The notes beneath the pieces were generated by a model that made no database searches, was not told the origin of the DNA, and was given only the letters and a program-made list of their open reading frames with translations. A program made the position numbers and the translations under genes. Source: an uncultured Fibrobacterota bacterium (GTDB lineage Bacteria; Fibrobacterota; Chitinivibrionia; Chitinivibrionales; FEN-1185). From it: a stretch of 64,000 bases of DNA. The stretch spans positions 128,001 to 192,000 of the forward strand of contig CAVWBU010000049.1 in the NCBI GenBank assembly GCA_963753345.1, read 5' to 3'. Below are positions 1-53,013 of the stretch, piece after piece. Numbering within the stretch: the stretch's first letter is position 1; each line of letters begins with the position of its first letter.

Positions 1-1542
1 CATCTGGCCGTAGGCGTACGATTTTTCCTTGTGGATGATGGTCGAGAACGCGTCCACGAGCGCGCCGTTGATGAGGATGTCGAGCTTGACAAGGTCGTTT
101 TCCTGGAACGAGTCGAACTCGTAATCCATGGAGGCATAGCCCTTTGAAATGCTCTTGAGCGTGTCGAAGAAATCGATGATTATTTCCGAGAGCGGGAGTC
201 TGTAGTTCATGCACACGCGTGTGGGTTCAAGGTATTCCATGGTGCCCATGATCCCGCGCTTGTCCTCGCACAGCTTCATGATGGCGCCCACGAATTCGGT
301 GGGCGTGATGATCTGCACCTTGTCCATCGGCTCCGAAACGGATTCGAGGTAATTGGGAGGCGGGAGCTTGGCCGGGCTCTCGATGTACAGCTCCTCCTTG
401 TTGCGGGTAAGAATCTTGTACCTTACGTTGGGGACCGTGGTGATGATGTTGACATTGTATTCGCGGAACAGCCGCTCCTGCACCACCTCCATGTGGAGGA
501 GGCCGAGAAACCCGGCGCGGAACCCGAACCCAAGCGCCCCGGACGTTTCGGGCACGTAGGAAAGCGACGAGTCGTTGAGCGTGAGTTTTTCCAGCGACGA
601 GCGCAGGTTCTCGTAATCGTCTTTGTCAACCGGGTAAATGCCCGAGAACACCATGGGCTTCACCTCTTTGTAGCCCGCGACCGGCGCATCGGCGCCGCCG
701 GTCTTGAGGGTGATCGTATCGCCGATCTTGATGTCCGACACCGTCTTGATATTCGCGATAACGTAGCCCACCTGGCCGGGGGTGAGCACGTCTTCCGGCG
801 TCCTGCCGAGACGGAAGAATCCAACTTCCATCACCTCATGCTCGCTGCCGCGAAAGAAAAACTTCACCATGTCGCGTGCCTTGATCTGGCCGTCGAACAC
901 GCGCACGTACGCCACGGCGCCGCGGAACGGGTCGAACTTCGAATCGAATATCAGGGCCTTGAGCGGTCGGTCGACGGAACCCGCGGGCGGCGGAACGGCG
1001 GCCACGATACGTTCGAGGATCGCGTCGACCCCCGCGCCTGATTTCGCACTGCACCGCAGGATCGAGGCTGCGTCGACGCCGAGCAGGTCGGAGATCTGCC
1101 GCGCCACGTCGTCGGGGTGGGCCGACGGCAGGTCTATCTTGTTCATCACCGGGATGATCTCGAGGTCGTTGCCGAGCGCAAGGTACACGTTGGTGAGCGT
1201 CTGCGCCTCGATGCCCTGGCTCGCGTCCACCACGAGCACGGCGCCTTCGCATGCCGCAAGCGAGCGCGACACCTCGTACGAAAAGTCAACGTGGCCGGGC
1301 GTGTCGATGAGGTTGAAGCAGTAGTCGCTGCCGTCCTTGGCGCGGTAGGTCATGCGCACGGGGTGCGACTTGATGGTGATCCCGCGCTCGCGCTCGAGAT
1401 CCATGTCGTCGAGGATCTGGTCCTGCATCCGGTCCTTCGCCACCGTGCCGGTGATCTCGAGGAAGCGGTCGGCCAGCGTCGACTTGCCGTGGTCGATGTG
1501 CGCGATGATGCAGAAATTGCGGATAAATTTGGGGTCCTGCAA
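1..1542 (-). CDS. lepA: Elongation factor 4 (LepA), 3' end runs off the window
   Basis: Manual translation from TTG at 1542 (GGAG RBS upstream) gives [26 protein letters not shown], later [12 protein letters not shown] and [14 protein letters not shown]; the frame stays open to position 1. Confidence 0.97.
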
Positions 1543-1640
1543 AAAAAACTCCGGATTTCTATTCTATTTTCTGGATGAATGAGAGTGTTTGCGACAATGG
1601 AAAATACAATAGGGGAGACGGCAAATTAGTTGAAGATTTT

Positions 1641-1830
1641 GGGCGTTCCCCCATGTAGAGTCTCTACATGGGGGCGGCCGTGCTTCCGGTCTCGGCCTCC
1701 GGCCTCGGGCTGCCTGCCACGAATGCCCTGCGGGCCGTGGTCAGGCAGCACCGCGCTCCTGCGCGGCCTCCAGTCCTGCCTAACGCGCGGCAACGGAATT
1801 CTATTCAGTCAACTATTTCTTTCCGCGCCA
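1641..1830 (-). repeat. Structured intergenic repeat family F1, copy A, with upstream spaced motif
   Basis: Reverse complement reads TGGCGC-N12-TTGACT-N17-CGCGCGTTAGG...GACTGGAGG...GAGACCGGAAG...GGGGAACGCCC, matching copies at 5333, 8128, 50589 and 62220. Confidence 0.85.
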
Positions 1831-1873
1831 AAACGCATGCGCACACATCAACTAACGTTTCTTTCTTTACTTT

Positions 1874-1986
1874 TCAACGCTTCAACTATTCAACGTTTCA
1901 ACGCTTTTCTTCTCAACTCATCAACGCTCCAACGCTCGAACGCTCCAACTCTTCAACTTCTCAACTCCTCAACTTCTCAACTTCTT
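1874..1986 (-). repeat. Degenerate tandem octamer tract (TCAACTTC / GAAGTTGA)n
   Basis: Repeated TCAACNNN units visible on the + strand; overlaps the stop codon of the MurC-like gene. Confidence 0.85.
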
Positions 1987-3339
1987 CCTTATCTCCTCCA
2001 CCAGCGCCGGCAAAGAAGGATCTCTTGCGCCCATCACAAGCACAACATCACCAGCCCCGGTGTGCTGCTTGATAAGCGCGACAAGTTCAGCACGGTCGCG
2101 CGGGGCGGATACGGTTTTGCCCTTGTCCCGCACGAGGCCGGCGATAATGTCCGACGAGATGTCCTTCTGTGCGGTGCCGCCCGCGTAATAGATGGGGAGG
2201 AGAAACAGCATGTCGTCGGATGTCAATTCCTCTGCGAACATGGCGACGAATTCGTCCTTGAGGAACCGGGTGGGGCCGAAGCCGTGCGGCTGGAACACTG
2301 CAAGCACGCGAGGGGAGAGCAGGCGTGCGGCACGGATGGCTGCGCGGATTTTTTCCGGGTTGTGGGCGTAATCGTCGATGATGCGGATGCCGTTCTGTAA
2401 AGTCACCACCGAAAACCTGCGCTGCACGCCCTGGTATTCCGCCGCCGCGTGGGCCAGGGACGGCCCGTCGCAGCCGAGCGTGTCGCACACGCACAGCGCG
2501 GCCAGAAGGTTCGACAGGTTGTGCGCTCCGGGCAGCGGAAGGGTGTAGGTGACGCCGCCGCGCGAAAATGAAATCCCGGGCGCAATGGTAAAGCCCTTGT
2601 CGGGCGCGAAGTCTCCCTCGAGACCGAAGGTGCGCTGCGCGCCGAGGACCGCGAGCTGCGGGTCGTCGGCGTTGGCAACGGTGATGTTCGACTGTCTCGC
2701 CAGCGCGGAAAACAGGCAGAGCGTTTCGGGCACGGGCTTGTGGTCCTTGGACACGTTGAGGAACACGCTCAAGTACGGTTTGTATTTTGCGCACGTGCCG
2801 TCACTTTCGTCCGCCTCGATCACAAGGATGTCCGACGTGCCCATAAAGGCGTTGCCCGCAAGCCCCTGCTTTTCCAGGCGCACAAGGCCTGCGCCTGAAA
2901 TGAGCGAGGGCGACTTGCCGCATGCGTCAAGGAACTCCCATATCATTGCCGCGACGGTCGATTTTCCGCTCGTGCCCGCGACCGCGATGGTCGCCTTTGA
3001 TGCCACGACCGCCGCGAGCACATCGGACCGGTGAACGATCGCTATGCCCGCGGCACGCGCGGCCGCGATCTCGGGGTTTGTCTCCTCGATTGCGGTGGAC
3101 ACCACGAGCGCGTCGGTGCCGCGGGTGACGCCGGATCCGTCCTGCGGAACAAGGATGCAGCCGAGCTTGACGAGCTTGTCCTGGAGGTCCAGCACGTCCG
3201 CCGAATTGAGAAGACGGTCTGAGCCGGACACAACCACGCCGTCCCATGCGCAGTACTGGGCGATCGCGCTCATGCCCGAGCCGAGGATGCCCGCGAAATG
3301 CAGGCGGCGGCACGACACGCCGTTAATCGATAACGACAA
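1969..3339 (-). CDS. MurC/Mpl-like Mur ligase paralog
   Basis: GILGSGMSAIA, P-loop AGTSGKST, EADESDG, DDYAHNP and FQPHGFGP motifs; canonical murC lies separately in the dcw cluster. Confidence 0.85.
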   Translation of the reverse strand: MSLSINGVSCRRLHFAGILGSGMSAIAQYCAWDGVVVSGSDRLLNSADVLDLQDKLVKLGCILVPQDGSGVTRGTDALVVSTAIEETNPEIAAARAAGIAIVHRSDVLAAVVASKATIAVAGTSGKSTVAAMIWEFLDACGKSPSLISGAGLVRLEKQGLAGNAFMGTSDILVIEADESDGTCAKYKPYLSVFLNVSKDHKPVPETLCLFSALARQSNITVANADDPQLAVLGAQRTFGLEGDFAPDKGFTIAPGISFSRGGVTYTLPLPGAHNLSNLLAALCVCDTLGCDGPSLAHAAAEYQGVQRRFSVVTLQNGIRIIDDYAHNPEKIRAAIRAARLLSPRVLAVFQPHGFGPTRFLKDEFVAMFAEELTSDDMLFLLPIYYAGGTAQKDISSDIIAGLVRDKGKTVSAPRDRAELVALIKQHTGAGDVVLVMGARDPSLPALVEEIRKKLRS

Positions 3340-3853
3340 GCATACCCTCCGGAACGTGGTCGAACAGTTCCACGATGTCCGCGTTCTTCATGCACACGCA
3401 GCCGTGCGACGCGGGCGCGCCCACGGACTTCTCGTTGTTGGTGCCGTGGATGTAAATGTACCGCTCATAGGAATCGATGCCCTCGCCGCGGTTGATCCCG
3501 TCTTCGCATCCTTCGAGGCGCAATATTCTCGTAAGGATAAGATTCTCGCCCGGGACGCCCACGGTCCATGTTTCTCCTGTGTCAAGGCGGTCCCGAAATA
3601 CCCTGCCCACGGGCGCGCCGTGGCCGTATTTTTCCTTCACCCGGTGCACGCCCGCGGGCGTCATGAGCGAGCCGTCGGCGTTGCCCACGCCGAACCTCGA
3701 CGACGACACCGGGTATTCCTTCACGGCAACGCCGTCAACCAGGCGGTACAGCCTCTGTTTCGCAATGTCGACAAACAGGAATTTCTGCGGCGTTGCGCCG
3801 CACGTCCGTTTGAGGCGCTCCTGGGCGTTCCGCAAACGCACTGCATCGATCAT
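3323..3853 (-). CDS. L,D-transpeptidase (YkuD family)
   Basis: IYIHGT...ASHGCVCM catalytic motif; ATG at 3853 with AGGAGA RBS; overlaps the start of the Mur ligase gene. Confidence 0.88.
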   Translation of the reverse strand: MIDAVRLRNAQERLKRTCGATPQKFLFVDIAKQRLYRLVDGVAVKEYPVSSSRFGVGNADGSLMTPAGVHRVKEKYGHGAPVGRVFRDRLDTGETWTVGVPGENLILTRILRLEGCEDGINRGEGIDSYERYIYIHGTNNEKSVGAPASHGCVCMKNADIVELFDHVPEGMLVVID

Positions 3854-3974
3854 GGACACTTCTCCTGCCGCGCCGGGAGGACGCAAAGTAAACTTGTTGT
3901 AGACATGCGCACCGTAATAAAATATAATCAATATCTGCAACGAGGCTCACACATCAGCGGAAAGGCAGGCCATC

Positions 3975-4655
3975 ATGAACGGTAAACCGGCGCAGCAGCC
4001 ACAGCTTCTCTCGAACGACGACACGTGGCGCATCTTCCGCATCATGGCCGAATTCGTTGAAGGGTTCGAGACCCTGTCGAAAATCGGCCCGTGCGTCACC
4101 ATTTTCGGGTCGGCGCGCACGGCCGCGGGCGACGTGTACTACGAGATGGCCCGTTCGGTGGCTTCGCTTGCCGTCAAGCACGGCTACGGGGTGATCACGG
4201 GCGGAGGCGGCGGCATCATGGAAGGCGCCAACAGGGGGGCATTCGAGGCCAACGGAACGTCGGTGGGGCTCAACATACAATTGCCGTTTGAGCAGGTGCC
4301 CAACAAGTACATCAAGCTCCTGCTGAGCTTTCGGCATTTCTTCTGCCGCAAGGTGATGTTCCTCAAGTACACCTCGGCGGTTGTCGTGCTGCCGGGAGGT
4401 TTCGGCACCATGGACGAACTGTTCGAAACGCTCACGCTCATCCAGACCCACAAGAGCGAAACGCTGCCGCTTGTCATTATGGGAAAAAGCTACTGGGAAG
4501 GGCTCATTGCGTGGCTGCGCGCGGGCATGCTCGGGAAAGGATACATTTCTCCGGAGGATTTCGATCTCGTGAGGCTCACCGACGATCCGCAGGAAACCAT
4601 CGACATCATCAACACGTTTATGAAGAAGCGCAGCACGCAGGTGAATTTTTCCTGA
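3975..4655 (+). CDS. LOG family (TIGR00730-type) nucleotide phosphoribohydrolase
   Basis: FGSAR, TGGGGGIMEGANRGA and PGGFGTMDELFE motifs. Confidence 0.92.
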   Translation: MNGKPAQQPQLLSNDDTWRIFRIMAEFVEGFETLSKIGPCVTIFGSARTAAGDVYYEMARSVASLAVKHGYGVITGGGGGIMEGANRGAFEANGTSVGLNIQLPFEQVPNKYIKLLLSFRHFFCRKVMFLKYTSAVVVLPGGFGTMDELFETLTLIQTHKSETLPLVIMGKSYWEGLIAWLRAGMLGKGYISPEDFDLVRLTDDPQETIDIINTFMKKRSTQVNFS

Positions 4656-4689
4656 CGGGAATCTATTTGTGCAAATAAAAAGTTTGTTG

Positions 4690-4718
4690 TTGACAAATTG
4701 TTTCGTGGAAGATATTAT
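4690..4718 (+). promoter_or_regulatory. Sigma70-type promoter for the small basic peptide gene
   Basis: TTGACA (4690-4695), 17 nt, TATTAT (4713-4718). Confidence 0.8.
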
Positions 4719-4853
4719 TTATATGGAAGCAGGCGGGAACAACGCCCGCTTCCGATAAGTAAACAAACGAAATGGGGCTTGCGGTCCGACGAGTAACGAG
4801 TAAGTCCGCGCAAGTTCCGAGTTTCCCGTCCTCATCCAAAAGGAGGTGCTGCC

Positions 4854-4916
4854 GTGGCAGCGAAGAAGAGGAAAAAAGTCGCGAAGAAAAAAGCGACGAA
4901 GAAAAGGAAAAGATAG
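4854..4916 (+). CDS. 20-aa Lys/Arg-rich peptide MAAKKRKKVAKKKATKKRKR
   Basis: GTG start following AGGAGGTG RBS (4841-4848), TAG stop; flanked by promoter and terminator; below the ORF-track length cutoff. Confidence 0.7.
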   Translation: MAAKKRKKVAKKKATKKRKR

Positions 4917-4949
4917 GTCTTTCGTTCCTGCACGATGTGCGCAGGCAAG

Positions 4950-4985
4950 GCGGGTGGACGTGATGTCCGCCCGCTTTTGATTTTT
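4950..4985 (+). terminator. Intrinsic terminator
   Basis: GCGGGTGGAC-GTGAT-GTCCGCCCGC stem followed by TTTTGATTTTT. Confidence 0.8.
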
Positions 4986-5024
4986 AGGTTAGAGAATGGG
5001 AATCGAAAAGTTACTAATGGTGTC

Positions 5025-5141
5025 GGCGGGGGAAGTTTCCCCCTCGCTCCGGCCGCCTTCGGCGTCCTGCGCTACCCCCTCCTGGGTGCACCCCAAGTGG
5101 AAGCAGTGGCTGAATCAAGCATCTGTGTGGGGGCACCTACG
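5025..5141 (+). repeat. Structured intergenic repeat family F2, copy 1
   Basis: GGGGGAAGTTTCCCCCTCGCTCCGGCC-hairpin-GTCCTGCGCTACCCCCTC-TGGGTG..CCCC...GGGGCACCTACG; homologs at 7909, 50390 and 53014. Confidence 0.85.
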
Positions 5142-5260
5142 TAGAGCAGTTGTGAAGGCATTCCTTTTTCTCACTCAGTTTTGTTTGATCCGCCACAAAA
5201 TGGCGCATTATTTATTGCCGGGGCAACGCCCCGGGGCGACAAACAGAACAATGTATATTT

Positions 5261-5310
5261 CCCCTCTCCACTTTTGGAGAGGGGTGGCCGTGACAACGGC
5301 CGGGGTGAGG
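5261..5310 (+). repeat. REP-like palindrome (CCCTCTCC...GGAGAGGG...GGGGTGAGG family)
   Basis: Hairpin plus GGGGTGAGG tail; related copies at 32723 (minus) and 56607. Confidence 0.7.
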
Positions 5311-5332
5311 CGACGATTCTGAGAATTCCACT

Positions 5333-5508
5333 TGGCGCAACTATTGCAACTTGACAAAATAGATTTCTTCTGCCGCGCGTTAGGTGGACCGGAGGGCGCG
5401 CAAGAGCGCGCTGCCGGTCGACCCGGCCGATAGGCATAGGGCGATCCGGCAACGAGGCGAACAGCAGAGCCCGCAGGGAGACCGACCCCGCGAAGCGGGG
5501 GAACGCCC
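5333..5508 (+). repeat. Repeat family F1, copy B
   Basis: TGGCGC-N12-TTGACA-N17-CGCGCGTTAGG...GCGCGC-AAGA-GCGCGC...GGGGAACGCCC. Confidence 0.8.
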
Positions 5509-5686
5509 TGGTCTTATTTCTCTATTCCCTCCCAGCTATAATTATTGCACCCCGGTCTGGCATCTTTTAGATTTATTCCGCCTTGCGAAAGCATTACCGG
5601 GCAAAGATGTCCGCCGGGATGCCATGCAAATTTGAACGGCATGAGAGCATGGACAGCGCAAGGCTTGATACCCCTTTGTTAAGGTC

Positions 5687-7873
5687 ATGAAAGAATACTC
5701 CGCATACATCTCCGACACGTGGAACATCTCCGAGCCGCTCGCCAAAGAACTGTGCGAATGCTACGAAAAAGGGTATTCCCCGTATTACTGCGCCGACTAC
5801 CGGCCCGCGGTCGCGGTTGAGCTCGACGCCGCCGGCGTGTGGCCGATCTTCGATTTCCTCCGCACTATGGTCGAGCTATCGCCGAAGAAGAAGCGGCTTC
5901 TCAACGCGCTTAAGAAAAGCGGGAAGCTCACCGGCGACCTGGAAAAGCGGATCGTGCACAGCGCGAATTCCTTCGAGCTCGACGATATGCTTTTGCCGGA
6001 ACGGCTCAACCCGCGGAGCAAGGGACAGCTTGCGCTCAAGAAGGGGCTGGGCGAATGCGCCGACGCCATTCTTGCGCAGCAGGAAACAGGCGCTTCCCTC
6101 GATGACCTTGTCGCGCCGTACGTAGGGAAGGACCCTACGGTCGCGACGCAGGACGCCGTAATTGCAAATGTCAAGGACATCATCGCCGAGCGTTTCGCCT
6201 ACGACGAAACCGCGCGCGCCATGGTGCGCGAATTCATGTACGACGACGGCTTCTTCGAAGTCGTGCCCAAGTCGAAAACCGACGAGAGGTTTGCCCGCTT
6301 TGCCGGCAAACCGGCGCCGGTGCGCGAGGTTTCGAAGGAGGATCTCCTGATGCTCCTTGCCGCGGAAGACGGCAAACTTGCGCGCGTCAAGCTCACCGTG
6401 CAGCTCTTCCGCATCACCGAGCTTCTCAAGCACCACTTCGTGGTCAATCCCGACGCCGCCGGCTTCCCGCTCATCAGCGAGGCCATCGACGACAGCTGGG
6501 TGCGCCTGCTGCAGCCCATTGCCGAACGCGACGTCAAGGCGCGCCTGCGCGCCGAAGCCGAAGACTGGGCGCTCGGCGTCATCCGGCCGGACCTGCAGAA
6601 GCGGCTTGCCGGGGAAGGCGAGGAAAAATCGTGCATCGCCTGCGGGGTTCACGACAAGAAGACGTTCGCGGTCGTCGCGTGCAGCACGCGCGGGCGCCTG
6701 TACGGCGCGGCGGTCGAAAAGAAAATCCCGCTTGACAAGCCCGCGGTGAGCGAGCGCCTCAGACAGTTCGTGCTGCGGTACCATCCCGAGCGCATCCTGG
6801 TGGCCGACAACGAAAGCGCCGCGATCGCGGAGGCCATCATAGCAAAATCACTTGACGCGCTCCCGGCGGTCCCCGCGGTCGAGCGGGTCAAGCGGGCCGG
6901 GGGGCTTCCCGACATTGCGGCATCGGAATGGATGAAAAAGGAATGCGCCGATCTCGAAGAACCGATGCAGCACGTATTTGCCGCGGCATTGACCTGCCTT
7001 CAGCCCCTGCGCCTTCTTCCCGTCCTCGGCGCCGAATACTTTTCCCTTCATCCGCTGCAGGCCTGCGTCACGCCCGCCCGTTTTTCGGAATGCGTCGACC
7101 GGATCGTTGTCGGCATGAGCATCGCCCGCGGAATCTCCCCGAACGATCTTTCCGAAACGGTGCTGTCGCCGAACTTCGATCCGTTTGCAGGCGATGCCTT
7201 GCGAAAGGAGATCGCGTCCCGGTGCCAGAAGGCGCCGTTCGCCGCCAAGGACGACCTGCTCAAGGTGCCCGGCATCACCGAAAGCGCGTTCCGCAATCTG
7301 GCGGGCTATGTGGTGATTCCAACGGCCGATTTCGCCCTCGACCGCACCATGGTGCATCCCGACCATTTTTCGTGGATCGGCGAGATGTGCGAGTTTCTGC
7401 AGCTCCCGCCCGACGCGCTTGTGAACGACCCCGAGGCGGTCCGCTCGTTCCCGGAATCCGACTTCGCAAAGAAACTCTTTATCGAAAAGAAACTCATCGA
7501 CCAGCTTGCCGCCGGCCGCAGGTCCGCCGCGGCCGCGCTCGCCAAGCCCCGGCGGAAGCTCAAGCTCACCGAGATCGAGGAAGGTTCGGTGGTGAACGGC
7601 CGGGTGACCAACATCACGCCGTTCGGCGTGTTTGTCAACATCAACGCGGTGTGTGACGGCCTCATCCACATTTCACAGCTCGCCGACACCTATGTCGAAT
7701 CGGCCGACCAGGTGGTGAGCGTGGGCGACGTGATAAATGTCCGCGTTCTCAAGGTGGACATCAAGAAGCGGAGAATCTCGCTGTCGATGAAAGGCCTGGG
7801 CCACCAGGGCCCCAAGGTTTCCCCCTCAAAGCGCCAGCTGTCGGACCTTGCCTCTCATTTTCAGAATCGCTGA
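5687..7873 (+). CDS. Divergent Tex-like protein with C-terminal S1 domain
   Basis: Tex-like N-terminus, HhH-like KVPGITESAFRNLAGY, LDRTMVHPD, and S1 domain GRVTNITPFGVFVNI..DGLIHISQL. Confidence 0.8.
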   Translation: MKEYSAYISDTWNISEPLAKELCECYEKGYSPYYCADYRPAVAVELDAAGVWPIFDFLRTMVELSPKKKRLLNALKKSGKLTGDLEKRIVHSANSFELDDMLLPERLNPRSKGQLALKKGLGECADAILAQQETGASLDDLVAPYVGKDPTVATQDAVIANVKDIIAERFAYDETARAMVREFMYDDGFFEVVPKSKTDERFARFAGKPAPVREVSKEDLLMLLAAEDGKLARVKLTVQLFRITELLKHHFVVNPDAAGFPLISEAIDDSWVRLLQPIAERDVKARLRAEAEDWALGVIRPDLQKRLAGEGEEKSCIACGVHDKKTFAVVACSTRGRLYGAAVEKKIPLDKPAVSERLRQFVLRYHPERILVADNESAAIAEAIIAKSLDALPAVPAVERVKRAGGLPDIAASEWMKKECADLEEPMQHVFAAALTCLQPLRLLPVLGAEYFSLHPLQACVTPARFSECVDRIVVGMSIARGISPNDLSETVLSPNFDPFAGDALRKEIASRCQKAPFAAKDDLLKVPGITESAFRNLAGYVVIPTADFALDRTMVHPDHFSWIGEMCEFLQLPPDALVNDPEAVRSFPESDFAKKLFIEKKLIDQLAAGRRSAAAALAKPRRKLKLTEIEEGSVVNGRVTNITPFGVFVNINAVCDGLIHISQLADTYVESADQVVSVGDVINVRVLKVDIKKRRISLSMKGLGHQGPKVSPSKRQLSDLASHFQNR

Positions 7874-7908
7874 TATCAAGTTTTTCACTTTCTCCCAATG
7901 AATTTGCT

Positions 7909-8055
7909 GGTGGGGGAAGGCTCCCCGTCGCTCCGGCCCTGCGCTCGTCACATCAAAGTTCGTCTTATTCCGCGCAGGTCCTGCGCTGCCCCCTCATGGG
8001 TAGCCGCCTTGACAAAGCAGTGGCAAGACCATGCAATGCTGTGGCGGCACCCACG
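7909..8055 (+). repeat. Repeat family F2, copy 2
   Basis: Same conserved blocks as 5025-5141; terminal stem GCCGCC/GGCGGC replaces CCCC/GGGG. Confidence 0.85.
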
Positions 8056-8127
8056 AAGAATAGTTGAGGAGTTGAGAGGTTGAGAAGTTAATAGGAAAAC
8101 AATGATTTACTCCTTGAAGATTCCGGC

Positions 8128-8323
8128 TGGCGCAATAAGAGTAAATTGACAGAATGGATTTCTCCTGCCGCGCGTTAGGGGCGACTGGAGGTCCCGCTAG
8201 AGCGGGATGCCGCCCGGACACGCCGCGAAGCGGCCTCGTGCCGAGGCGGCCCGAGGCCGAAGGCCGAGACCGGAAGGAGAACCGACCCGAGCCTGAGTCT
8301 TGACGAAGGCGAGGGGAACGCCC
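8128..8323 (+). repeat. Repeat family F1, copy C
   Basis: TGGCGC-N12-TTGACA-N17-CGCGCGTTAGG...TCCCGC-TAGA-GCGGGA...GAGACCGGAAGG...GGGGAACGCCC. Confidence 0.88.
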
Positions 8324-8373
8324 AAGTCCTCTACTAGGAACGCTTGATAACCTGCCATACTTAACAATCGGGA

Positions 8374-10050
8374 TTACATTCTCTCCGGCGCCGAAACACC
8401 CAACAAATCCAATCCTAGTCTGATCACGTTCCTCACGCCGCAAGTGAGCAGCAGCCTCGCGCACGACAGGGGCCTGTTGTCCGTCACGATCCTGTGCTTC
8501 TGGTAGAACGAATGGAACTCCGCGGCGAACGATTCGAGGTAGGCGGTGATGCGCTGGGGCTCCACGAACAGCGCGGTCTGCACGAGCAGGGTGGGGAATT
8601 CCGCGATGCGACGCACCAGGTCGAGCTCTTCCGGCTCGGCAAGCAGGGAGGGCGAGGCGCCGCCGGCATTCCCGTCTGTAAAGCCCTGTTGGCGCGCGTG
8701 GGCAAGCAGGCTGCACGTGCGTGCATGTGCATACTGGACGTAATACACGGGGTTGTCGTCGGATTTCTTCGTGGCGAGCGTCATGTCGAAGTCGAAATGG
8801 CTTGACAGGCGGCGCATGAGGAAGAAGTAGCGCATCGCGTCGACGCCCACCTCGTCGAGCAGGTCGGCCATGGTCACGAAGTCGCCCTTACGCTTGGACA
8901 TGCGGAACGGGACGCCGTCGCGGATCAGGTTAACCTGCTGGATGATGAAATTCTTAAAGACGGTCTTCGACAGTCCGAGTGCGGACACCGCGCCCTCGAG
9001 CCGGGGCAGATACCCGTGATGGTCGGGCCCCCAGAACGTGTACGATTCGTCAAACCCGCGCGACGCCTTGTGCAGGTGGTACGAAAGATCGGCCAGGAAG
9101 TAGGTGGGCGATCCGTCCTGCCGCACGAGTACGCGGTCTTTTTCGTCGCCGAAATTGGTCGAGGCGAACCAGACCGCGCCTTCCTTTTCGAGAACAAGGC
9201 CCTTTTCGCGAAGGAGCGAGAGTGTCTTTGCGGGCGCGTCCGATTTGTGAAGCTCGCTTTCCATAAACCAGCGGTCGTAGTTCACGCCGTACGCGGCAAG
9301 GATTTTTTTCTGGTCTGCCATGATGCGGCCCAGCGCCTCCGCAGTGAACAGCCGTTCGGCTTCGGCGCCGGGCATTGCCGCGACCTCGGGCCTGGCCGCG
9401 GAGATTTCGGCTGCCAGGTCGCGTATGTAATCGCCCTCGTAGCCGCCCTCGGGAATGGCCGCGTCCTTTCCGTGGCCCTGGTAGTACCGGCATGCAATCG
9501 ATTTTCCCAGCAGCTCGACCTGGTTGCCGTAGTCGTTCACGTAGTATTCGCGCTCCACCTCGTGGCCCAGCCACGAATTGACGCGCGCGATGGTGTCGCC
9601 GATTGCCGCGGCGCGTCCGTTGACCACCACCATGGGCCCGGTCGGGTTTGCGCTCACGAACTCGAACAGGATGCGTTTCTTCTGCGGAACCTGGTTGCGG
9701 CCGTATCGCTCCGGCGACAGCGCGGCCTCGGCAAGCACGCCATGCAGATACACGGGGCTCAGACGGAAATTGATGAACCCGCCCGCAATCGTGCTCACAA
9801 GGCCCGGATCGGGCGTCACGAAGCGGTCGTCCCATGCAAATCGCTCCATGAGTTTGCGGGCGACGGCCACGGGATTTTCTTTGAGGATTTTTGCAAGGCC
9901 GAGCGCCATGGGCGACGAAAGGTCGCCGTGCGATTTCTGCTTTGGTTTTTCGATGACGATATCTGGGGCAGCAACCGCTGTCCCGCCGAACGCCGACGCC
10001 GCGGCCGACCGGAGCGCGCCGGCAAGATATGCATACACGGAATCAGGCAT
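8374..10050 (-). CDS. argS: Arginine--tRNA ligase
   Basis: EFVSANPTGP, EYYVNDYGNQ, WGPDHHGY, RMSKRKG and NPVYYVQYAHAR motifs. Confidence 0.96.
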   Translation of the reverse strand: MPDSVYAYLAGALRSAAASAFGGTAVAAPDIVIEKPKQKSHGDLSSPMALGLAKILKENPVAVARKLMERFAWDDRFVTPDPGLVSTIAGGFINFRLSPVYLHGVLAEAALSPERYGRNQVPQKKRILFEFVSANPTGPMVVVNGRAAAIGDTIARVNSWLGHEVEREYYVNDYGNQVELLGKSIACRYYQGHGKDAAIPEGGYEGDYIRDLAAEISAARPEVAAMPGAEAERLFTAEALGRIMADQKKILAAYGVNYDRWFMESELHKSDAPAKTLSLLREKGLVLEKEGAVWFASTNFGDEKDRVLVRQDGSPTYFLADLSYHLHKASRGFDESYTFWGPDHHGYLPRLEGAVSALGLSKTVFKNFIIQQVNLIRDGVPFRMSKRKGDFVTMADLLDEVGVDAMRYFFLMRRLSSHFDFDMTLATKKSDDNPVYYVQYAHARTCSLLAHARQQGFTDGNAGGASPSLLAEPEELDLVRRIAEFPTLLVQTALFVEPQRITAYLESFAAEFHSFYQKHRIVTDNRPLSCARLLLTCGVRNVIRLGLDLLGVSAPERM

Positions 10051-35979: not shown

Positions 35980-38262
35980 ATGTTGAAAAAAATCCTTCTT
36001 ACCATTGTCCTGGCCGCGGGACTGCTGTATTCGCAGCCGGCCTCAGACATCGACACGGTGCTCGTGACGCCCGTGTTTCTCAAGCTGGTCGACAACTCGA
36101 ATAACGTTTTCAAGTACGTCGGCAAGGTGACCTACCAGCTCGTCGGCTGGTCCAACGACCAGTTCACCGCGTCGCTCTCGATCATCCAGGACGGCTCCGG
36201 CACGGTGGTGCCGCTTACCTCGGTGAAAGGCGACGGTTACGGTTCATTTACAAGATGGGGACTAAAGGGAATCTTTTTCGCGTGCCAGTTCAACGGCCCG
36301 CCGAGCGGGACCTACAAGGCGAAGGTGAGCGTGATCGCCTCGCAGAGCGACTCAGCCAAGTTTGTTGAAAGTAAGATCAACAGCCTTTCCAATGGCGACA
36401 AGCAGACCATCATCAATGGCGGATCGGCCGGCGGCGTGCCGGCAGTGGCATGGCAGGACGGCCCGTATGGCGTCCGCGGCGGGTATGCATACCCGGCCGG
36501 CGAGGGCATGGCGTCCACGTGGGACACCGCAATCGCCGAACAAGGCGGATATTACAAGGGTCAGGATTTCAGGGGCGTGGGCTCCTTCAACATCATGCTC
36601 GGCACCACCGTGAACCTGGTGCGCGACGCACGGGGCGGCCGCACGTTCGAGAGCTACGGCGAAGATCCGTTTCTCCAGGGCAAGATGGCAGCGGCGGACT
36701 GCCGCGGGTGCAGCAAGAGCGGCCTCATGGTTACTGTAAAGCATTTCTGCTGCAACAACGAGGAGCGTGCGCGAGGAAATTACCCGGTGTGGGCCACAGA
36801 GCGGACCCTGCGCGAACTGTATACCTATCAATTCGGCATGGCTGCGCTTGAGGGCGAGGCAACCGGCTTCATGACCGCGTACAATGCGGTGAACGGCTTC
36901 CATAACGCTCACAACAAGCACACGATAACCGATATTATCAAGAACTCATGGGGTATGAAGGGATACTTCCTTACAGACTGGGACGATGGCGGCGGCAATT
37001 ATCCTGATGCCGCCCAGGCCGGGCTTGACCTGCCTACCCCGGACACATGGGGCGGCGCTCTGGCGGCCATGGTGCCCGGCACCATTTCGCAAGCCTTTTT
37101 CGACGACAAGGCACGGCGCTGGCTATGGGCGCGCTATAGGACGCACTGCTTTGAGCCGGGATATACGATCCAGTCGACCTACCATGACTCCATCGACAAT
37201 ACAACGCACTACAATTACATGCGCCAGGCAACGCGCGAGGCAATGGTGCTGATGAAGAACGACAACAACATCCTGCCGATTGACAGAAATTCAAGCCCCG
37301 TGACGATTGCCTGCGTGGGTACGTATGCGAACAATATGCAATGGTTCGTTTCCGCAAGCAGCCTGGTGAATCCGAAGCATTTGACGACTGCCTCTGCCGC
37401 GATAAAAAAGATCGGCGGCACAAACGTGACCGTCAACACCGATTATGCGAACGCCGATTATGCAGTGGTCTGCATAGGGCCCATTGACATGGGCGAGGGA
37501 AACGACAGGGTGAATGTCAGCTTGCCGGATTCCGACAACGCGCTGGTTGCCAAGGTGCTTGCCGCGAATCCGCACACCATCGTGTTTTATGAAGGCGGAA
37601 GCTGGGCGGATTCCGGCGCATGGAACAAAGCGCCGGGGATCATCGCGGAGTTTTTTGCCGGCGAAGATCATACGCTTGCCTTTGCCGAGGTTCTGTTCGG
37701 CGACTACAATCCTGCCGGCAGGTTGTCCATGACCTTTCCCGCAGACTCGACGCAGCTTCCCGTGTGGGGCATCGGCGCTCCATGGAACACCTCGGGCGCG
37801 ACCAAGGATTTTTATGAGGACGCCTGGGAAGGCAGGGGATACCCGTATTACGACTATCATAAAATGACGCCGCTGTTCTACTTCGGCCACGGCCTGAGTT
37901 ACACGACGTTCCAATACAGCAACCTCTCAATAACGCCGGCCGGCGGATATCCGGGCGACACGTTCCACGTAAGCGTGGACGTGAAGAACACGGGCACGCG
38001 CGACGGCGACGAAGTGGTGCAGCTGTACCTGCACGACGAGCAGAGCGCTTTGCCTCGGCGGTACAAGGACCTGCGCGGCTTTGCCAGGGTTCCGCTCACC
38101 GCGGGCCAGACAAAGACCGTGAACTTCGGGATCACGGAACGCGACATGGAATACTATGACACCACGCAGACCGCGTGGGTGGTCGAGCCGGGCCCGATCG
38201 ACGTGCTCGTGGGCGCGTCATCGCACGACATTAGGCAGACAGGAACGATAACGCTGTATTAG
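35980..38262 (+). CDS. GH3 beta-glucosidase-like hydrolase (paralog 1)
   Basis: GRTFESYGEDP, KHF, FLTDW (nucleophile), GEGNDR, FGHGLSYTTF and an Fn3-like C-terminus. Confidence 0.93.
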   Translation: MLKKILLTIVLAAGLLYSQPASDIDTVLVTPVFLKLVDNSNNVFKYVGKVTYQLVGWSNDQFTASLSIIQDGSGTVVPLTSVKGDGYGSFTRWGLKGIFFACQFNGPPSGTYKAKVSVIASQSDSAKFVESKINSLSNGDKQTIINGGSAGGVPAVAWQDGPYGVRGGYAYPAGEGMASTWDTAIAEQGGYYKGQDFRGVGSFNIMLGTTVNLVRDARGGRTFESYGEDPFLQGKMAAADCRGCSKSGLMVTVKHFCCNNEERARGNYPVWATERTLRELYTYQFGMAALEGEATGFMTAYNAVNGFHNAHNKHTITDIIKNSWGMKGYFLTDWDDGGGNYPDAAQAGLDLPTPDTWGGALAAMVPGTISQAFFDDKARRWLWARYRTHCFEPGYTIQSTYHDSIDNTTHYNYMRQATREAMVLMKNDNNILPIDRNSSPVTIACVGTYANNMQWFVSASSLVNPKHLTTASAAIKKIGGTNVTVNTDYANADYAVVCIGPIDMGEGNDRVNVSLPDSDNALVAKVLAANPHTIVFYEGGSWADSGAWNKAPGIIAEFFAGEDHTLAFAEVLFGDYNPAGRLSMTFPADSTQLPVWGIGAPWNTSGATKDFYEDAWEGRGYPYYDYHKMTPLFYFGHGLSYTTFQYSNLSITPAGGYPGDTFHVSVDVKNTGTRDGDEVVQLYLHDEQSALPRRYKDLRGFARVPLTAGQTKTVNFGITERDMEYYDTTQTAWVVEPGPIDVLVGASSHDIRQTGTITLY

Positions 38263-38265
38263 CAG

Positions 38266-38331
38266 GTTGAACGTTGACGGTTGACAAGCGGGGTACGTAG
38301 CAATGCCTTTCTGTCAACGGTCAACCGTTAA
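38266..38331. repeat. Heptamer-built inverted repeat between the GH3 genes
   Basis: GTTGAACGTTGACGGTTGACA ... TGTCAACGGTCAACCGTTAAC. Confidence 0.65.
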
Positions 38332-38356
38332 CTTTCTCCAACATGAGGGGGAGGAC

Positions 38357-40630
38357 ATGAAATTCAGATTCATAGCAGCCGCGCTTTGTGCATGCGCGGT
38401 AATCGTTTCCGGCCAGCCGCTCACCCAGATAGACACGGTGCAGGTGACGCCGGTTTTTCTCAAGCTCGTCGACAACTCCGGCGGCGTCTACAAGTACAGG
38501 GGAAAGGTGTCCTACCGCATCATCGGGTGGGCGTACGACCGGTTCAACGTTTCCTTGTCGCTCATACAGGACGGCACCGGAACGGTCGTGCCGCTCACCA
38601 TGACCAAGGGCGACATCGGCCAGCTCACATGGCAGGGCGACAAAGGAATCCATTTCGCCTGCCAGTTCAACGGCCAGCCCACGGGCACCTACAAGGCAAA
38701 GATTTCGATCGCTTTGTCACAGAGCGACACCGCTGTTTTTATCGAAAACAAGATTGCATCGATGTCGAACGGTGACAAACAAACCATCGTAAACGGCGGG
38801 AGCGCGGCGGGCGTCGTGGGTCTGAACTGGCGCGACGGCCCGTACGGCCTTGGCGGCACCTGGTCCTTCCCCACGGGCCTCGCAATGGCCGCCACGTGGG
38901 ACACGGCCATCGTCGAAGAGGGCGGCCGTTTCATGGGAATGTGCTTCCGGGGACACGATTATAACGTCCAGCTGGGACCTTCCTGCAATCTTTGCCGCGA
39001 CAGCCGCGCCGGACGGACCACCGAATCATACGGCGAAGATCCCTTTGTAAACGGCAAAGGCGCCACCGCAGCCGTTAAGGGCGTGATGCGGGGCGGCACC
39101 ATTCCGACGCTCAAGCATTACTGCTGCAACAATGTGGAGCGCGCGCGGGGGTTCTACCCCGTGCACGTTTCGGAGCGGGGACTTCGCGAGCTTTACACAT
39201 ACCACTTCGGCATGGCTGCTCATGACGGCGGTACCGCCGCCATCATGGTAGCCTACAATTCGGTGAACGGCCTCCATAATGCGCAAAATCATCACACCAT
39301 GACCGACATCCTCAAGAACTCCTGGGGCCTGAAGGGATTCATCCTCACGGACTGGGACAACGGCGGCACCGGCAATGCTTCCATATTGGCATTGGCAGGA
39401 CTCGACCTGCCCACCCCGGGAACCTGGGGCGGCGGTCTGGAGGGACTGGTGCCTGGTACCATTACGCAGGGATTTTTCGACGACAAGGCGCGCCGCTCGC
39501 TGTGGGCGCGGTACAAAACAGGTTGTTTCGATCCCGGATACACAAGGACAATGTACACGGATTCCATCAACAGCACGAACATGTACAACTACGCGCGCCG
39601 GGTCTCGCGCGAATGCTATATCCTTCTCAAGAACGACAACAACCTGCTTCCGCTTGACAGAAGCGTCCCGATGACCATTGCCATGGTGGGGCCATGGGCC
39701 AATGAAATCCGGTGCGGTCCGGTCGGCAGCGCCCAGAACTGTCCCAGCAAGCACTACACCGCGCCGACGGCGGCGGTAAAACAGATCGGCGGCTCGAACA
39801 TCACGGTCAACAGCGATTACAATAATTGCGACTATGCGATCGTGTGCATCGGCCCCAACGATGAGGGCGAGGGCTTTGACCGCAACGAAGTATCACTGCC
39901 CGATACGCAGGATAAGCTGGCTGGAACAGTGCTCGCCGCAAATCCCGGCCATACTATTGTGTGGTATACCGGAGGCAGCACCGCGGACACGGGTAACTGG
40001 AACAAAGTCCCGGCGATTATCATGTCGTCTTATCCCGGTGAAGACCATGCCATGGCCCTGGCCGAGGTTCTGTTCGGCGACTACAATCCGGGCGGGAAAA
40101 CCCCGTTAACGTTCCCGCTGGACTCGACCCAGCTCCCGAGGTTCGGCGTGAACACTCCGTGGGGCGATACCGGCGATCCCTACGAGCCAGTGTGGGAGGG
40201 ACGGGGATATCCCTACTACGACTTCCACCATCTGACGCCGCTGTTCTGCTTCGGTTACGGCCTCAGTTACACCACGTTTGCGTACAGCGGTCTTTCGATC
40301 TCACCGGCCGGAGGGTATCCGGGCGACACATTTGCCGTTTCTGTGAATGTCCAGAACACCGGCAGCCGCGCCGGCGACGAAGTGGTGCAGCTGTACCTGC
40401 ACGACGAACAGAGTGTCCAGCCCAGGCGGTACAAAGACCTGCGCGGGTTCAGGCGCGTTCCTCTTAACGTCGGAGAGACAAAGACCGTCACCTTCAATCT
40501 TGTGGAGCGCGACTTCGAGTACTACGACACCACGCAGACGGCGTGGGTTATAGAGCCCGGGGCGGTGGACGTCCTCGTAGGATCATCGTCTCTCGACATC
40601 AGGCAGCAGGGGACGATTACGTTTTATTAA
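38357..40630 (+). CDS. GH3 beta-glucosidase-like hydrolase (paralog 2)
   Basis: GRTTESYGEDP, KHY, ILTDW, GEGFDR, FGYGLSYTTF; collinear with paralog 1; GGAGG RBS. Confidence 0.93.
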   Translation: MKFRFIAAALCACAVIVSGQPLTQIDTVQVTPVFLKLVDNSGGVYKYRGKVSYRIIGWAYDRFNVSLSLIQDGTGTVVPLTMTKGDIGQLTWQGDKGIHFACQFNGQPTGTYKAKISIALSQSDTAVFIENKIASMSNGDKQTIVNGGSAAGVVGLNWRDGPYGLGGTWSFPTGLAMAATWDTAIVEEGGRFMGMCFRGHDYNVQLGPSCNLCRDSRAGRTTESYGEDPFVNGKGATAAVKGVMRGGTIPTLKHYCCNNVERARGFYPVHVSERGLRELYTYHFGMAAHDGGTAAIMVAYNSVNGLHNAQNHHTMTDILKNSWGLKGFILTDWDNGGTGNASILALAGLDLPTPGTWGGGLEGLVPGTITQGFFDDKARRSLWARYKTGCFDPGYTRTMYTDSINSTNMYNYARRVSRECYILLKNDNNLLPLDRSVPMTIAMVGPWANEIRCGPVGSAQNCPSKHYTAPTAAVKQIGGSNITVNSDYNNCDYAIVCIGPNDEGEGFDRNEVSLPDTQDKLAGTVLAANPGHTIVWYTGGSTADTGNWNKVPAIIMSSYPGEDHAMALAEVLFGDYNPGGKTPLTFPLDSTQLPRFGVNTPWGDTGDPYEPVWEGRGYPYYDFHHLTPLFCFGYGLSYTTFAYSGLSISPAGGYPGDTFAVSVNVQNTGSRAGDEVVQLYLHDEQSVQPRRYKDLRGFRRVPLNVGETKTVTFNLVERDFEYYDTTQTAWVIEPGAVDVLVGSSSLDIRQQGTITFY

Positions 40631-47129: not shown

Positions 47130-47299
47130 ATCATAGCCACCTTATGTTTTTGATTTCTCTTCGTATTCCTCTCTGAACATGGTGTGGTTCCCAGTTTCAC
47201 GTGGTCGAGGAAACTTCCTGTTCCCGCGCCCGGTCAGTTTTCATGATTTGCTTTCAACTTCCAACTTTCAACCTTTAACCTCTTCCCGCATCCACCCCC

Positions 47300-48148
47300 T
47301 CAACCCATCAACAACTTCCATCCTTCATCCAGCGCCAGTGCAGCAAGACCGCAGAGCATTTCGTATTTGATAAGAGAGGAAATCCGTGCGGCAGACTTTT
47401 CCCAGTCCGATTTGTAAAACAGCAGGGACCAGCGGACATGCAGGGGGACAACGGTTGCCAGGCAAATTGCCGCGTACACCATGCCGAAGTCGCGGGAGAG
47501 AAAGGGCACGGTAACAAGAATTGCGTAGAGCAGGCCGCACACGGCAACCACCGCGGTGAGCAGCCGGCGGGAGAGCGCCGCCGAGGTGACGTATCCTGCC
47601 GCGGCGTCGCCCTGCCTGTCCTGGACGTCCTTGACGATTTCGCGCGGCAGGTTGAGCAGAAACGCGAGCGCCGCCGGCGCGATCAGGCGGTGCAGGCCGG
47701 GACCCAAGAGCCCGCCAAAGATAATGCCGTAGGCGACAAGCAGGCTCACCAGGACATTGCCCGCAAGCGGGGTTGCTTTGAAAAACAGGGCATAGGCGAG
47801 CAGTAGACAAAGGGGAACAACGGCGCCAGCGCCGTGGGGAATGGAGACCGCGAATGCGGCGGCAGCGGAGGTCGCGGCAAGGACCGTCGCATAGACAACG
47901 GCGGCATTTTTCTTTATCGCCCCGGACGCCAGCGGCCTACCGGGATGGCTTATCCTGTCGGTTACGATGTCGGCGATGTCGTTGACCACGTTGCCGAACC
48001 CCGCGGCGGCCGCCGCTGCGAGCGCGAGAAGGGCAAGCGCCGTCACGCCGCCGGGCGCGGACGCAAGCCAGAACCCCAGGGCCACGCCGAGCGCGAGCAT
48101 GAGCAGGTTTACGGGCCGCAGAATTCGTACAAAGGCCGCAGGTCTCAT
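47300..48148 (-). CDS. UbiA-family prenyltransferase, DGGGP-synthase-like
   Basis: RPVN, NDIADIVTDRISHPGRPLASG and REIVKDVQDRQGD motifs; multiple TM helices. Confidence 0.82.
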   Translation of the reverse strand: MRPAAFVRILRPVNLLMLALGVALGFWLASAPGGVTALALLALAAAAAAGFGNVVNDIADIVTDRISHPGRPLASGAIKKNAAVVYATVLAATSAAAAFAVSIPHGAGAVVPLCLLLAYALFFKATPLAGNVLVSLLVAYGIIFGGLLGPGLHRLIAPAALAFLLNLPREIVKDVQDRQGDAAAGYVTSAALSRRLLTAVVAVCGLLYAILVTVPFLSRDFGMVYAAICLATVVPLHVRWSLLFYKSDWEKSAARISSLIKYEMLCGLAALALDEGWKLLMG

Positions 48149-48302
48149 GACAACCTTTGCCTGTTGAAAAAAAATTCGGATGACAAGCGATGATTTATTT
48201 TCTGTGACGAGATTTTTCAGTGTCACGCTGCCCCGGACACGTTCGTTGACATCAATATACGATTATTCCGCATGGAGTTGCGCTACAATTTCGGAGGAAA
48301 CC

Positions 48303-48833: not shown

Positions 48834-48888
48834 GAGTTGAAAGCAGGACTCAGAAAGACCGTACGTTCCACAATCTGGAATCTGGAAT

Positions 48889-50363: not shown

Positions 50364-50389
50364 ACCCTATCTCCATTCAAGACAATTTT

Positions 50390-50502
50390 GGTGGGGGAGG
50401 TTTCCCCCTGCTTGCGGCCCTACGGTCCTCCAGCACCCCCTCTTGGGTGGCCCCCAAGTAAGTTGGTTGCGAGAAACATGCTTCTGCTGGGGGGCACCCA
50501 CG
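50390..50502 (+). repeat. Repeat family F2, copy 3
   Basis: GGGGGAGGTTTCCCCCTGC..GGCC-CTACGG-TCC..CACCCCCTC-TGGGTGGCCCCC...GGGGGGCACCCACG. Confidence 0.85.
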
Positions 50503-52988: not shown

Positions 52989-53013
52989 GATATTCAAGAA
53001 CGAATTCTTCATG

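Follow-up and report, generated by a model that had tools for sequence, protein, structure and literature searches.

In a 64,000-nucleotide (nt) stretch from an uncultured Fibrobacterota bacterium (assembly GCA_963753345.1, contig CAVWBU010000049.1, positions 128,001 to 192,000; hereafter the window), two intergenic repeats, F1 and F2, recur in the fixed order F2, linker, F1. Both are conserved multi-helix folds with compensatory base changes. We propose that they are probably non-autonomous, strand-specifically folded and horizontally spreading interspersed repeats, similar in kind to REP (repetitive extragenic palindromic) sequences, bacterial interspersed mosaic elements (BIMEs) and BOX elements, that are tolerated at the 3' ends of genes. 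This proposal draws on their strand-specific folds without genes of their own, their mosaic composition, their residence at gene 3' ends, copy numbers ranging from zero to hundreds and spread on plasmids.

Profile searches with nhmmer, each profile built from the four window copies of its family, recovered 409 F1 and 278 F2 matches (E≤1e-3) in the 4.52-Mb metagenome-assembled genome (MAG) that contains the window (G000; the five other genomes of its genus are G001 to G005), and the matched sequence amounts to ~119 kb, or 2.6% of the 4.5-Mb genome. A same-strand F2 lies within 600 nt upstream of 206 of the 409 F1, at a median gap of 64 nt. The other arrangements hardly occur: no F1 has an opposite-strand F2 upstream, 6 have a same-strand F2 that overlaps or lies downstream, and 1 has an opposite-strand F2 downstream; conversely, a same-strand F1 lies downstream of 203 of the 278 F2 and an opposite-strand F1 of 2. 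Hence, crowding of repeats into intergenic space, the trivial explanation considered in the preliminary description of the window, does not account for the composite. Nor are the two families the ends of a recognisable insertion sequence (IS) or miniature inverted-repeat transposable element (MITE), since no recurrent form with an open reading frame (ORF) between F2 and F1 was seen and the ORF families contained no multi-copy transposase.

Within the window, all six loci originally listed hold F1, F2 or both by nhmmer, at coordinates that were correct within a few bases (Table 1). They comprise three composites in the same order and orientation (5021-5518, 7905-8332 and 50386-50641, the last with an F1 stump of 64 nt), a solo F2, a solo F1, and an F1 without F2 beside an inverted copy of the (GTTGAGAA)-like tract that also occurs in the linkers of the second and third composites. 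The repeats adjoin unrelated genes, as had been stated: 12 of 12 flanking proteins were ordinary by Pfam, among them a LepA/TypA-like GTPase, a Mur ligase, LOG, Tex, ArgRS, an RluD-like protein and PPK2. The claim that the window lacks a transposase held for these 12 proteins, and the genome has a few DDE and IS110 genes elsewhere.

The genome-wide copies are diverged, with a median pairwise identity of 0.68 for F1 and 0.70 for F2 and a nearest neighbour at ~0.85. G000 is 94% complete with 4.8% contamination, and its assembly contains co-assembled strain variants, visible as 89-99.9% identical duplicates of 4-9 kb (contigs C4/C5 versus C16, C44/C45 versus C46, C55 versus C15, C38/C42 versus C19, and others); these represent a natural population sample and slightly inflate the raw repeat counts. 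Such an assembly could suggest that the repeats are an assembly or binning artefact or a chance similarity. However, when contigs of at least 25 kb were considered, a restriction that removes most strain duplicates, 176 composites, 179 solo F1 and 68 solo F2 remained (423 of 484 units), and copies lie inside long contigs, flanked by intact housekeeping genes. They are diverged rather than collapsed, F1 recurs in four of the congeners, and the reversed-pattern control of the signature search described below gave no match. These points refute an artefact, to which we give practically no credence.

F1 consists of a conserved 5' module of ~50 nt and a GC-rich core of ~150 nt, as delimited by flank profiles and profile start positions. 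It starts within the first 20 profile positions in 194 of the 206 composites, while 94 of 203 solo F1 begin at the core (profile position 41-60). The 5' module therefore belongs to the composite, being near-universal in composite F1 and absent from many solo F1. The core is modelled as a ~150-nt, seven-helix element in which a 5-bp closing helix encloses three hairpins, a probable inner helix and a variable 3' hairpin. In an alignment of 24 copies from G000 and four congeners, 92.2% of the cells in helices could pair, against 82.3% after column shuffling (none of 500 shuffles reached the real value) and 36-47% when the partners were slid. Thirteen pairs change on both sides, and an automatic structure gave 11 of 27. 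Among 222 distinct full-length G000 copies, single pairs alternate between CG (109) and TA (103), between GT (105), TA (61) and CG (48), and between CG (130) and GC (77), and one long-range pair is GC in 196 and AT in 22 copies, with no exception. G.U pairs outnumber A.C oppositions by 359 to 28 in the F1 helices, indicating that the fold belongs to the strand as written.

The core of F2 is a compact element of ~80 nt with three hairpins. In 32 copies from several phyla, 92.4% of the cells could pair, against 85.6% in shuffled alignments (0 of 500) and 46-65% with slid partners. The second helix covaries (CG 11, GC 9, UA 3, AU 2) and the first hairpin is invariant in all 32 copies; the minimum-energy fold of a single copy gives the same three hairpins. 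Compact and F1-type elements close with an identical 7-nt tail behind a GC hairpin. Of the 212 occurrences in G000 of an 11-mer containing this tail, 186 are at the 3' end of an F1.

The usual linker between F2 and F1 is a run of 8-nt units, each with GTTGA. G000 has 185 such runs of at least three units, 93 of them inside composites, 22 just upstream of a solo F1, 8 just after a solo F2 and 56 standing alone; tracts associated with an element always share its orientation. They are C-poor (4.4% C), and 180 of the 185 hold stop codons in all three frames. The linker of the first composite in the window is atypical: nested within it (5262-5312) is a different small repeat of two short GC hairpins, which recurs in the linkers of other G000 composites and in G005 (L011, near 3990-4040).

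The elements hug the 3' ends of genes with a moderate sense bias. Genes were called as crude ORF picks without a gene finder, for which distances to stop codons are robust and distances to start codons unreliable. The composite begins a median of 24-26 nt past the stop codon of a co-oriented upstream gene (two counts, n=129 and n=81), and F1 ends a median of 22-28 nt from the stop codon of a convergent gene. Leaving out 14 composites at contig edges, 81 of 192 have the orientation of both neighbouring genes, 49 that of the upstream gene with an opposite downstream gene, 32 are opposite to both and 30 lie between divergent genes, so that 130 of 192 are sense to the upstream gene and only 111 to the downstream gene. 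Stand-alone tracts lie a median of 8-9 nt past the stop codon of the upstream gene, to which 41 of 49 are sense (the 49 being those of the 56 that are situated between ORF calls and away from contig ends). Composites agree with GC skew by 82 to 45 and genes by 974 to 717; because the genes show this bias too, a replication-strand bias of the composites is inseparable from gene orientation. Some of the gaps filled by F2-F1 composites separate members of a 14-member family of ~930-amino-acid (aa) secreted glycosidase-like paralogues in G000 (a label given by eye from one sequence), several of which are in tandem (C18:62076-71316, C32:36554-46138 and others); there, F2 starts 12-28 nt past the stop codons of the paralogues.

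Such positions are also what one would expect if the blocks were host-serving RNA modules, co-transcribed with the upstream gene, whose spread is a by-product of their usefulness. The C-poor tract would stop stray ribosomes in every frame, and the F2 and F1 domains would protect the 3' end or terminate or insulate transcription. REP and BIME elements in Escherichia coli protect 3' ends or terminate or insulate transcription. The short distance between stop codon and F2, the sense bias of composites and stand-alone tracts, and the three-frame stops all agree with such a role, as do the compensatory changes that keep the folds in diverged copies, the excess of G.U over A.C expected of sense-strand RNA, and one site whose alternating alleles are an F1 and a plain terminator-like hairpin. 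However, a third of the composites (62 of 192) do not share the orientation of the upstream gene, which excludes them from a sense 3' untranslated region (UTR), and the 30 between divergent genes have no gene 3' end to serve. A run of at least four T is found near the 3' end of only 162 of 359 intact F1. Stops in three frames follow almost automatically from a C-poor, TGA-bearing unit whose period, 8, is not divisible by 3. Copy number also varies widely, the F2 signature count ranging from 0 to 137 within the genus and G003 having neither family. We regard a host-serving 3'-end role as a serious rival, not exclusive of spreading repeats, and as possible rather than probable.

The F1 5' module holds a TTGACA-like hexamer, and a T-rich trailer follows many copies. 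F1 could thus be read as a multi-copy small RNA (sRNA) gene with the module as promoter, the core as RNA and the trailer as terminator, and the conservation of the module, the frequency of trailers and a complex fold conserved at the level of the order would fit. But no -10-like hexamer stands 17 nt from the TTGACA-like hexamer when compared by eye with the canonical promoter of a neighbouring tiny gene at ~4700-4750, 94 of 203 solo F1 lack the module, and an F1-like copy in Treponema sp. JC4 fills an operon spacer with no T run. To our knowledge, ~400 gene copies of one sRNA would be without precedent. We consider sRNA genes improbable.

Species, and strains as well, differ by the gain and loss of blocks. 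BLAST detects F1 in four of the five congeners and in no genome among 25 from other genera of the order; the 99% complete G003 lacks both families in all three kinds of search (BLAST, covariance model and signature). At the LOG-Tex-ArgRS locus of G001, where the flanks are 92% identical, the whole F2-linker-F1 block (~4984-5536) is missing, and contig C214 joins window position 4983 to 5537 with ~6 nt between. G003 and G004 are also empty at the site orthologous to 5021-5518, and G005 has F1 in opposite orientation on both sides of tex. The comparison of filled and empty sites suggested earlier thus yielded an empty orthologous site in G001, but no clean pair of sites with defined ends and no target duplication at the junctions. 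Strains within the assembly differ as well. Contigs C4 and C16 have 99% identical flanks and an identical F2, after which C16 and C5 carry a tract, a nested small repeat and F1 (~480 nt), while C4 has 63 unrelated bases instead; the alleles diverge at the 3' end of F2 and rejoin at the start codon (ATG) of the following gene. At another site, the alleles that alternate are a 330-nt one with F1 and a 40-nt one with a simple hairpin. Contigs from four DNA runs over window positions 1400-8600 contained pile-ups of other copies and chimeric joints, with no clean empty-site joint.

Beyond the genus, F2 is the local, amplified form of the ~80-nt three-hairpin element, which is patchily distributed across several phyla, plasmids and a few viral contigs. 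Of 151 genomes of the phylum, 79 had a match to a covariance model of F2 (R2); in the family with the complete Fibrobacter-type genomes, the model matched 48 of 55. Covariance-model copy numbers outside G000 are lower bounds, as ~20 candidates were scored per genome. A 21-letter signature spanning the first hairpin and the following bases was found in 69 of the 151 genomes, with no match for the reversed pattern. Signature counts were 137 in G000, 91 in G001, 25 in G005, 20 in G004, 7 in G002, 0 in G003 and 1-22 in the Fibrobacter-type family. A 27-letter signature, searched in one genome per species, matched at least 118 stretches. Among the matches listed were records from the phylum itself (Fibrobacter, Chitinispirillia, Chitinivibrionales), from Treponema, Spirochaetaceae and Spirochaetota, from Prevotellaceae, Tannerella and Bacteroidales, and from Zixibacteria, Nitrospirae, Leptospira ainazelensis, Collinsella and Candidatus Ancillula. 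Exact signatures numbered 311 in one 2.1-Mb Prevotellaceae MAG (G157), 3 in Treponema sp. JC4 and 1 each in the Leptospira, Nitrospirae and Collinsella genomes.

Over ~103 nt, the G157 copies share 91-97% identity, and the element has no match in the 20 nearest relatives, which points to a recent lineage-specific burst; no relative with alignable flanks was available there for comparison with empty sites. In this genome a purine-rich leader precedes the element and a 7-nt C-poor tandem tract follows it. G157 and G000 thus have in common the succession of leader, element and short-period tract, but not the tract sequence. Many G157 copies (L204, L207, L210) are preceded by the degenerate 5' half of another copy ending at the same internal 7-nt word, and some copy pairs are inverted around a long hairpin of 7-nt tracts; the nested partial copies hint at self-targeted insertion at the internal word. 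In low-copy genomes, the compact element lies between unrelated housekeeping genes, in either orientation and with no common neighbour, for example between Rnf subunits, hisF and hisH, or flgG and a methylase gene, including sites inside operons.

Eight plasmid records also carry the compact element, in full length and with 76-78% identity: seven are from Sphingomonadaceae (six predicted to be mobilizable and one conjugative) and one is from Treponema saccharophilum. The element further occurs on 4 viral contigs in IMG/VR. On the Tardibacter plasmid pHSL1 (L224 3501-3586), it sits close to the genes for plasmid replication, with a serine-recombinase/DUF6771 pair on one side and a Tn3-family transposase gene on the other. 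In the Fibrobacter-family genome G137, a DUF3800-XI RNA (Rfam RF02975, 48.8 bits, above the gathering score; L066:233-279) lies just downstream of a compact-element copy on the opposite strand, and its last hairpin resembles the first hairpin of the element.

F1 has a narrower range. A covariance model of its core (R1) gave strong matches only within the genus, and weaker but convincing ones of 33-62 bits in other genera of the order, where the F1-like elements keep the closing helix (with a compensatory change) and the conserved single-stranded stretches while the variable helices are shortened. R1 matched 17 of the 151 genomes of the phylum. One Fibrobacter-family genome has a single match, and Treponema sp. 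JC4 has six weak matches (28-31 bits) to a version of 113-117 nt, one of which spans the spacer of an operon exactly, from the stop codon to the next ribosome-binding site; the one Prevotellaceae MAG searched with R1 gave none.

We searched for an enzyme that could mobilise the repeats. G000 has no Pfam match to Y1_Tnp (RAYT/IS200; PF01797), to the TnpB-type domain Cas12f1-like_TNB (PF07282) or to RVT_1, one IS110-type gene (DEDD_Tnp_IS110) and seven DDE_Tnp_1 matches. PF01797 is absent from G000, G001 and G003 and present in G002, G004 and G005. G002 has 147 DDE_Tnp_1 matches but 7 F2 signatures; its DDE_Tnp_1 genes form several near-identical families, a massive IS expansion in one congener. 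An all-against-all comparison of ~3,700 crude ORFs of G000 showed no multi-copy transposase, the sole sizeable family being the 14 glycosidase-like paralogues. Nor was an autonomous form seen: a solo F1 lies within 9 kb of 20 of the 75 solo F2, and these 20 cases are all different, with no recurrent spacing or ORF. The preliminary description had proposed a modular mobile element or structured RNA with a trans-acting partner. Two structured repeats are indeed joined; no trans-acting partner is evident, and mobility is inferred only.

F1, F2 and the compact element have no counterpart among the 4227 Rfam families, and the window has no match at the gathering score. Matches to 20 composites and 13 loci of other Fibrobacterota genomes were scattered and at chance level (E≤1), and plasmid, viral and Treponema copies gave nothing relevant at E≤0.1. 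Literature searches on repeats of Fibrobacterota and Chitinivibrionales, on intergenic structures of Fibrobacter and on strings of the compact element found nothing on these elements; for Fibrobacter they led only to the work of Weinberg from 2010 and 2017. To this extent, their earlier description as an undescribed system stands.

Several known systems are close enough to compare. REP sequences are single imperfect palindromes of 20-40 nt (PMC3733652), and REPs, BIMEs and REPINs, the inverted REP pairs, are moved by RAYT transposases in Enterobacteria and Pseudomonas (PMC2817692, PMC3116915, PMC3337134). Like REPs and BIMEs, F1 and F2 are high-copy extragenic repeats that fold as single strands, form composite mosaics, are non-autonomous and diverged within the genome, and lie at gene 3' ends and between convergent genes. 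In contrast, the units here are 80-200 nt long with three to seven helices and stand in direct, not alternating, order, the small element crosses phyla, and whereas genomes with REPs have a RAYT gene, no Y1 transposase is present in G000, G001, G003 or G157. Pneumococcal BOX elements (PMC3049150) are likewise intergenic and have no transposase of their own. BOX elements have the modular layout boxA-boxB(n)-boxC, in which distinct boxes keep a fixed order and a short middle unit varies in number. They are known from a single genus, however, and their predicted folds are simpler, whereas the block in G000 unites two families of independent distribution through an 8-nt C-poor tract. The palindrome-associated transposable elements (PATEs) derived from IS200/IS605 (PMC6006769) share hairpins at both ends, strand-specific structure and the lack of target duplication, and the short conserved tail behind the 3' hairpin may mark where cleavage occurs, as in HUH systems; however, G000 has neither TnpA(Y1) nor TnpB. 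No conserved target tetranucleotide emerged either: upstream of 20 G157 copies the flanks are purine-rich, with no fixed word by eye of the kind (4-5 nt) that would precede a PATE insertion. Finally, Weinberg et al. (2017) reported candidate structured RNAs, including the DUF3800, drum and skipping-rope motifs, and screened Fibrobacteres intergenic regions; such motifs (PMC5737381) resemble F1 and F2 in having complex conserved folds without an assigned function, often before terminators and not in 5' UTRs. The only match to them is the DUF3800-XI RNA beside, not on, one Fibrobacter-family copy. Overall, F1 and F2 differ from every described member compared in size, fold complexity, direct arrangement, lack of a RAYT and the cross-phylum range of the small unit.

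Other candidates were rejected. A DDE-derived MITE does not fit the lack of a target duplication, the ends (an A/purine-rich leader on one side, a GC hairpin and tail on the other) and the lack of a full-length parent. The closing helix of F1 has its GTT arm 5' and its AAC arm 3', the reverse of the integron attC arrangement (RYYYAAC 5', GTTRRRY 3'). A riboswitch or 5' leader is at odds with a sense downstream gene in only 111 of 192 cases, unrelated flanking genes and copies in the hundreds. A sigma-54 promoter, an HDV-like or twister ribozyme and an ssoA-type single-strand origin were dropped on reading the alignments, alongside the Rfam negatives.

That F1 and F2 are mobile is inferred from their presence or absence between relatives and strains and from a patchy cross-phylum distribution with lineage-specific bursts. 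If they are horizontally spreading repeats, the ~80-nt F2-type element would pass between phyla, being present on mobilizable plasmids and a few viral contigs, and amplify in some lineages. In the genus of G000, F2 and F1 have become joined into a block of purine-rich leader, F2, C-poor 8-nt tract, ~50-nt F1 5' module, core and often a T-rich trailer, which is gained, lost or swapped as a unit; shorter forms related to F1 exist elsewhere in the order and, with weak matches, in Treponema and Fibrobacter. A trans-acting enzyme may make the copies, recognising the invariant first hairpin, the GC hairpin with its 7-nt tail, or both, on a single strand of DNA or RNA. Insertions would survive mainly just past gene 3' ends, where they are harmless. 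Homologous recombination in the genes on either side would then exchange them among strains, and a benefit to the host, from 3'-end structure or three-frame stops, would be secondary.

Several observations weigh against this proposal. No target duplication was seen by eye at the G000/G001 indel, in the strain variants or in the 20 near-identical G157 copies, and the strain differences look like segment replacements rather than clean insertions; homologous recombination in flanking genes would produce such a whole-segment pattern. Y1_Tnp is absent from G157 despite its 311 copies, from Treponema sp. JC4 and from two Fibrobacter-family genomes (G153, G092 and G096 were searched besides G157). 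None of the five Pfam families tried across the genus (Y1_Tnp, Cas12f1-like_TNB, RVT_1, DEDD_Tnp_IS110 and DDE_Tnp_1) tracks copy number, although most genomes are MAGs in which a multi-copy transposase could be unassembled, leaving its absence unproven. The sense biases of the composites (130 of 192) and the stand-alone tracts (41 of 49) need not arise with a purely selfish element, and the old or diverse copies of G000 fit maintained functional elements as well as slow transposition. With respect to strand specificity, a thermodynamic test of F1 found no sense-strand preference and is uninformative or contrary, the single-sequence energy z of the copy at 8166-8325 being -1.9 sense and -3.2 antisense.

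A bolder version of the spreading-repeat proposal is that compact and F1-type elements form one undescribed superfamily of self-propagating elements, copied via a single-stranded intermediate by a ubiquitous host enzyme. It builds on the shared layout of an A-rich leader, GC-rich hairpins, a terminal hairpin and the common 7-nt tail. We think this unlikely. If true, copying by a host enzyme would explain how the elements cross phyla without a gene of their own, why the first hairpin is invariant and why no transposase tracks them, and the C-poor tract would halt translation in all frames or block loading of Rho on the sense strand, making insertions behind stop codons harmless.

Table 1. Positions of F1, F2 and tract features in the window
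Feature	Position	Strand	Evidence and context
F1, full length (5' module and folded core)	1632-1842	-	nhmmer E 8.5e-51, profile 2-205; upstream of LepA/TypA-like GTPase gene
Long C-poor tract of 8-nt period (GTTGA units)	1850-1985	-	starts at Mur-ligase-like stop codon, runs into F1; no F2; inverted-repeat match to 8062-8089 and 50509-50549
F2 of first composite	5021-5153	+	nhmmer E 1.5e-32
Atypical 167-nt linker, other small hairpin repeats in place of tract	5154-5319	+	sequence, profile positions
F1 of first composite	5320-5518	+	nhmmer E 4.4e-46
F2 of second composite	7905-8068	+	nhmmer E 1.5e-44; begins ~32 nt past Tex stop codon (7873)
GTTGA-unit tract in linker of second composite	8060-8089	+	sequence, repeat finder
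F1 of second composite	8115-8332	+	nhmmer E 2.1e-52; 3' end ~40 nt from convergent ArgRS stop (8374)
Stand-alone tract	47249-47285	-	inverted-repeat pairs I8, I10; 14 nt past stop of gene 47300-48226(-)
Stand-alone tract	48809-48845	+	overlaps stop of ORF 48180-48833
F2 of third composite	50386-50515	+	nhmmer E 3.2e-32
GTTGA-unit tract of third composite	50509-50549	+	sequence, repeat finder
Truncated F1 (5' module and first core bases, profile 3-66)	50578-50641	+	nhmmer E 2.4e-4; direct-repeat family D7
Solo F2	53012-53180	+	nhmmer E 5.4e-40
Solo F1	62163-62399	+	nhmmer E 9.9e-48; 3' end 7 nt from convergent PPK2 stop (62406); core intact, 5' part not conserved, extra hairpin insert (alignment)

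Two further features of the window lie apart from the repeats. Between LOG and tex (~4700-4990) is a tiny conserved gene for a Lys/Arg-rich peptide of ~20 residues, with a ribosome-binding site, a canonical promoter of the TTGACA/TATTAT type (~4700-4750) and a clean hairpin terminator; it is kept in G001, G003 and G004 and lost in G005. Positions 35980-38262 and 38303-40630 hold tandem paralogous genes of ~760-775 aa with ~74% DNA identity (repeat families D1-D5).

At 2.6% of the genome, F1 and F2 fill a large share of the intergenic space of this bacterium and shape its assembly, its annotation and probably the 3' ends of its transcripts. The compact element is a gene-less unit of 80 nt, present in 1 to 311 copies in Fibrobacterota, Spirochaetota and Bacteroidota, on plasmids of Alphaproteobacteria and on a few viral contigs, and associated with no known transposase. 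Should its mobilising factor be found, bacterial mobile DNA would gain a new mechanism or a new class of substrate; if the compact element is a functional RNA instead, it would be a widespread class that has no name yet. Cultured carriers among the matches, such as Treponema sp. JC4 and the species with complete Fibrobacter-family genomes, make this a question that can be tested at the bench.

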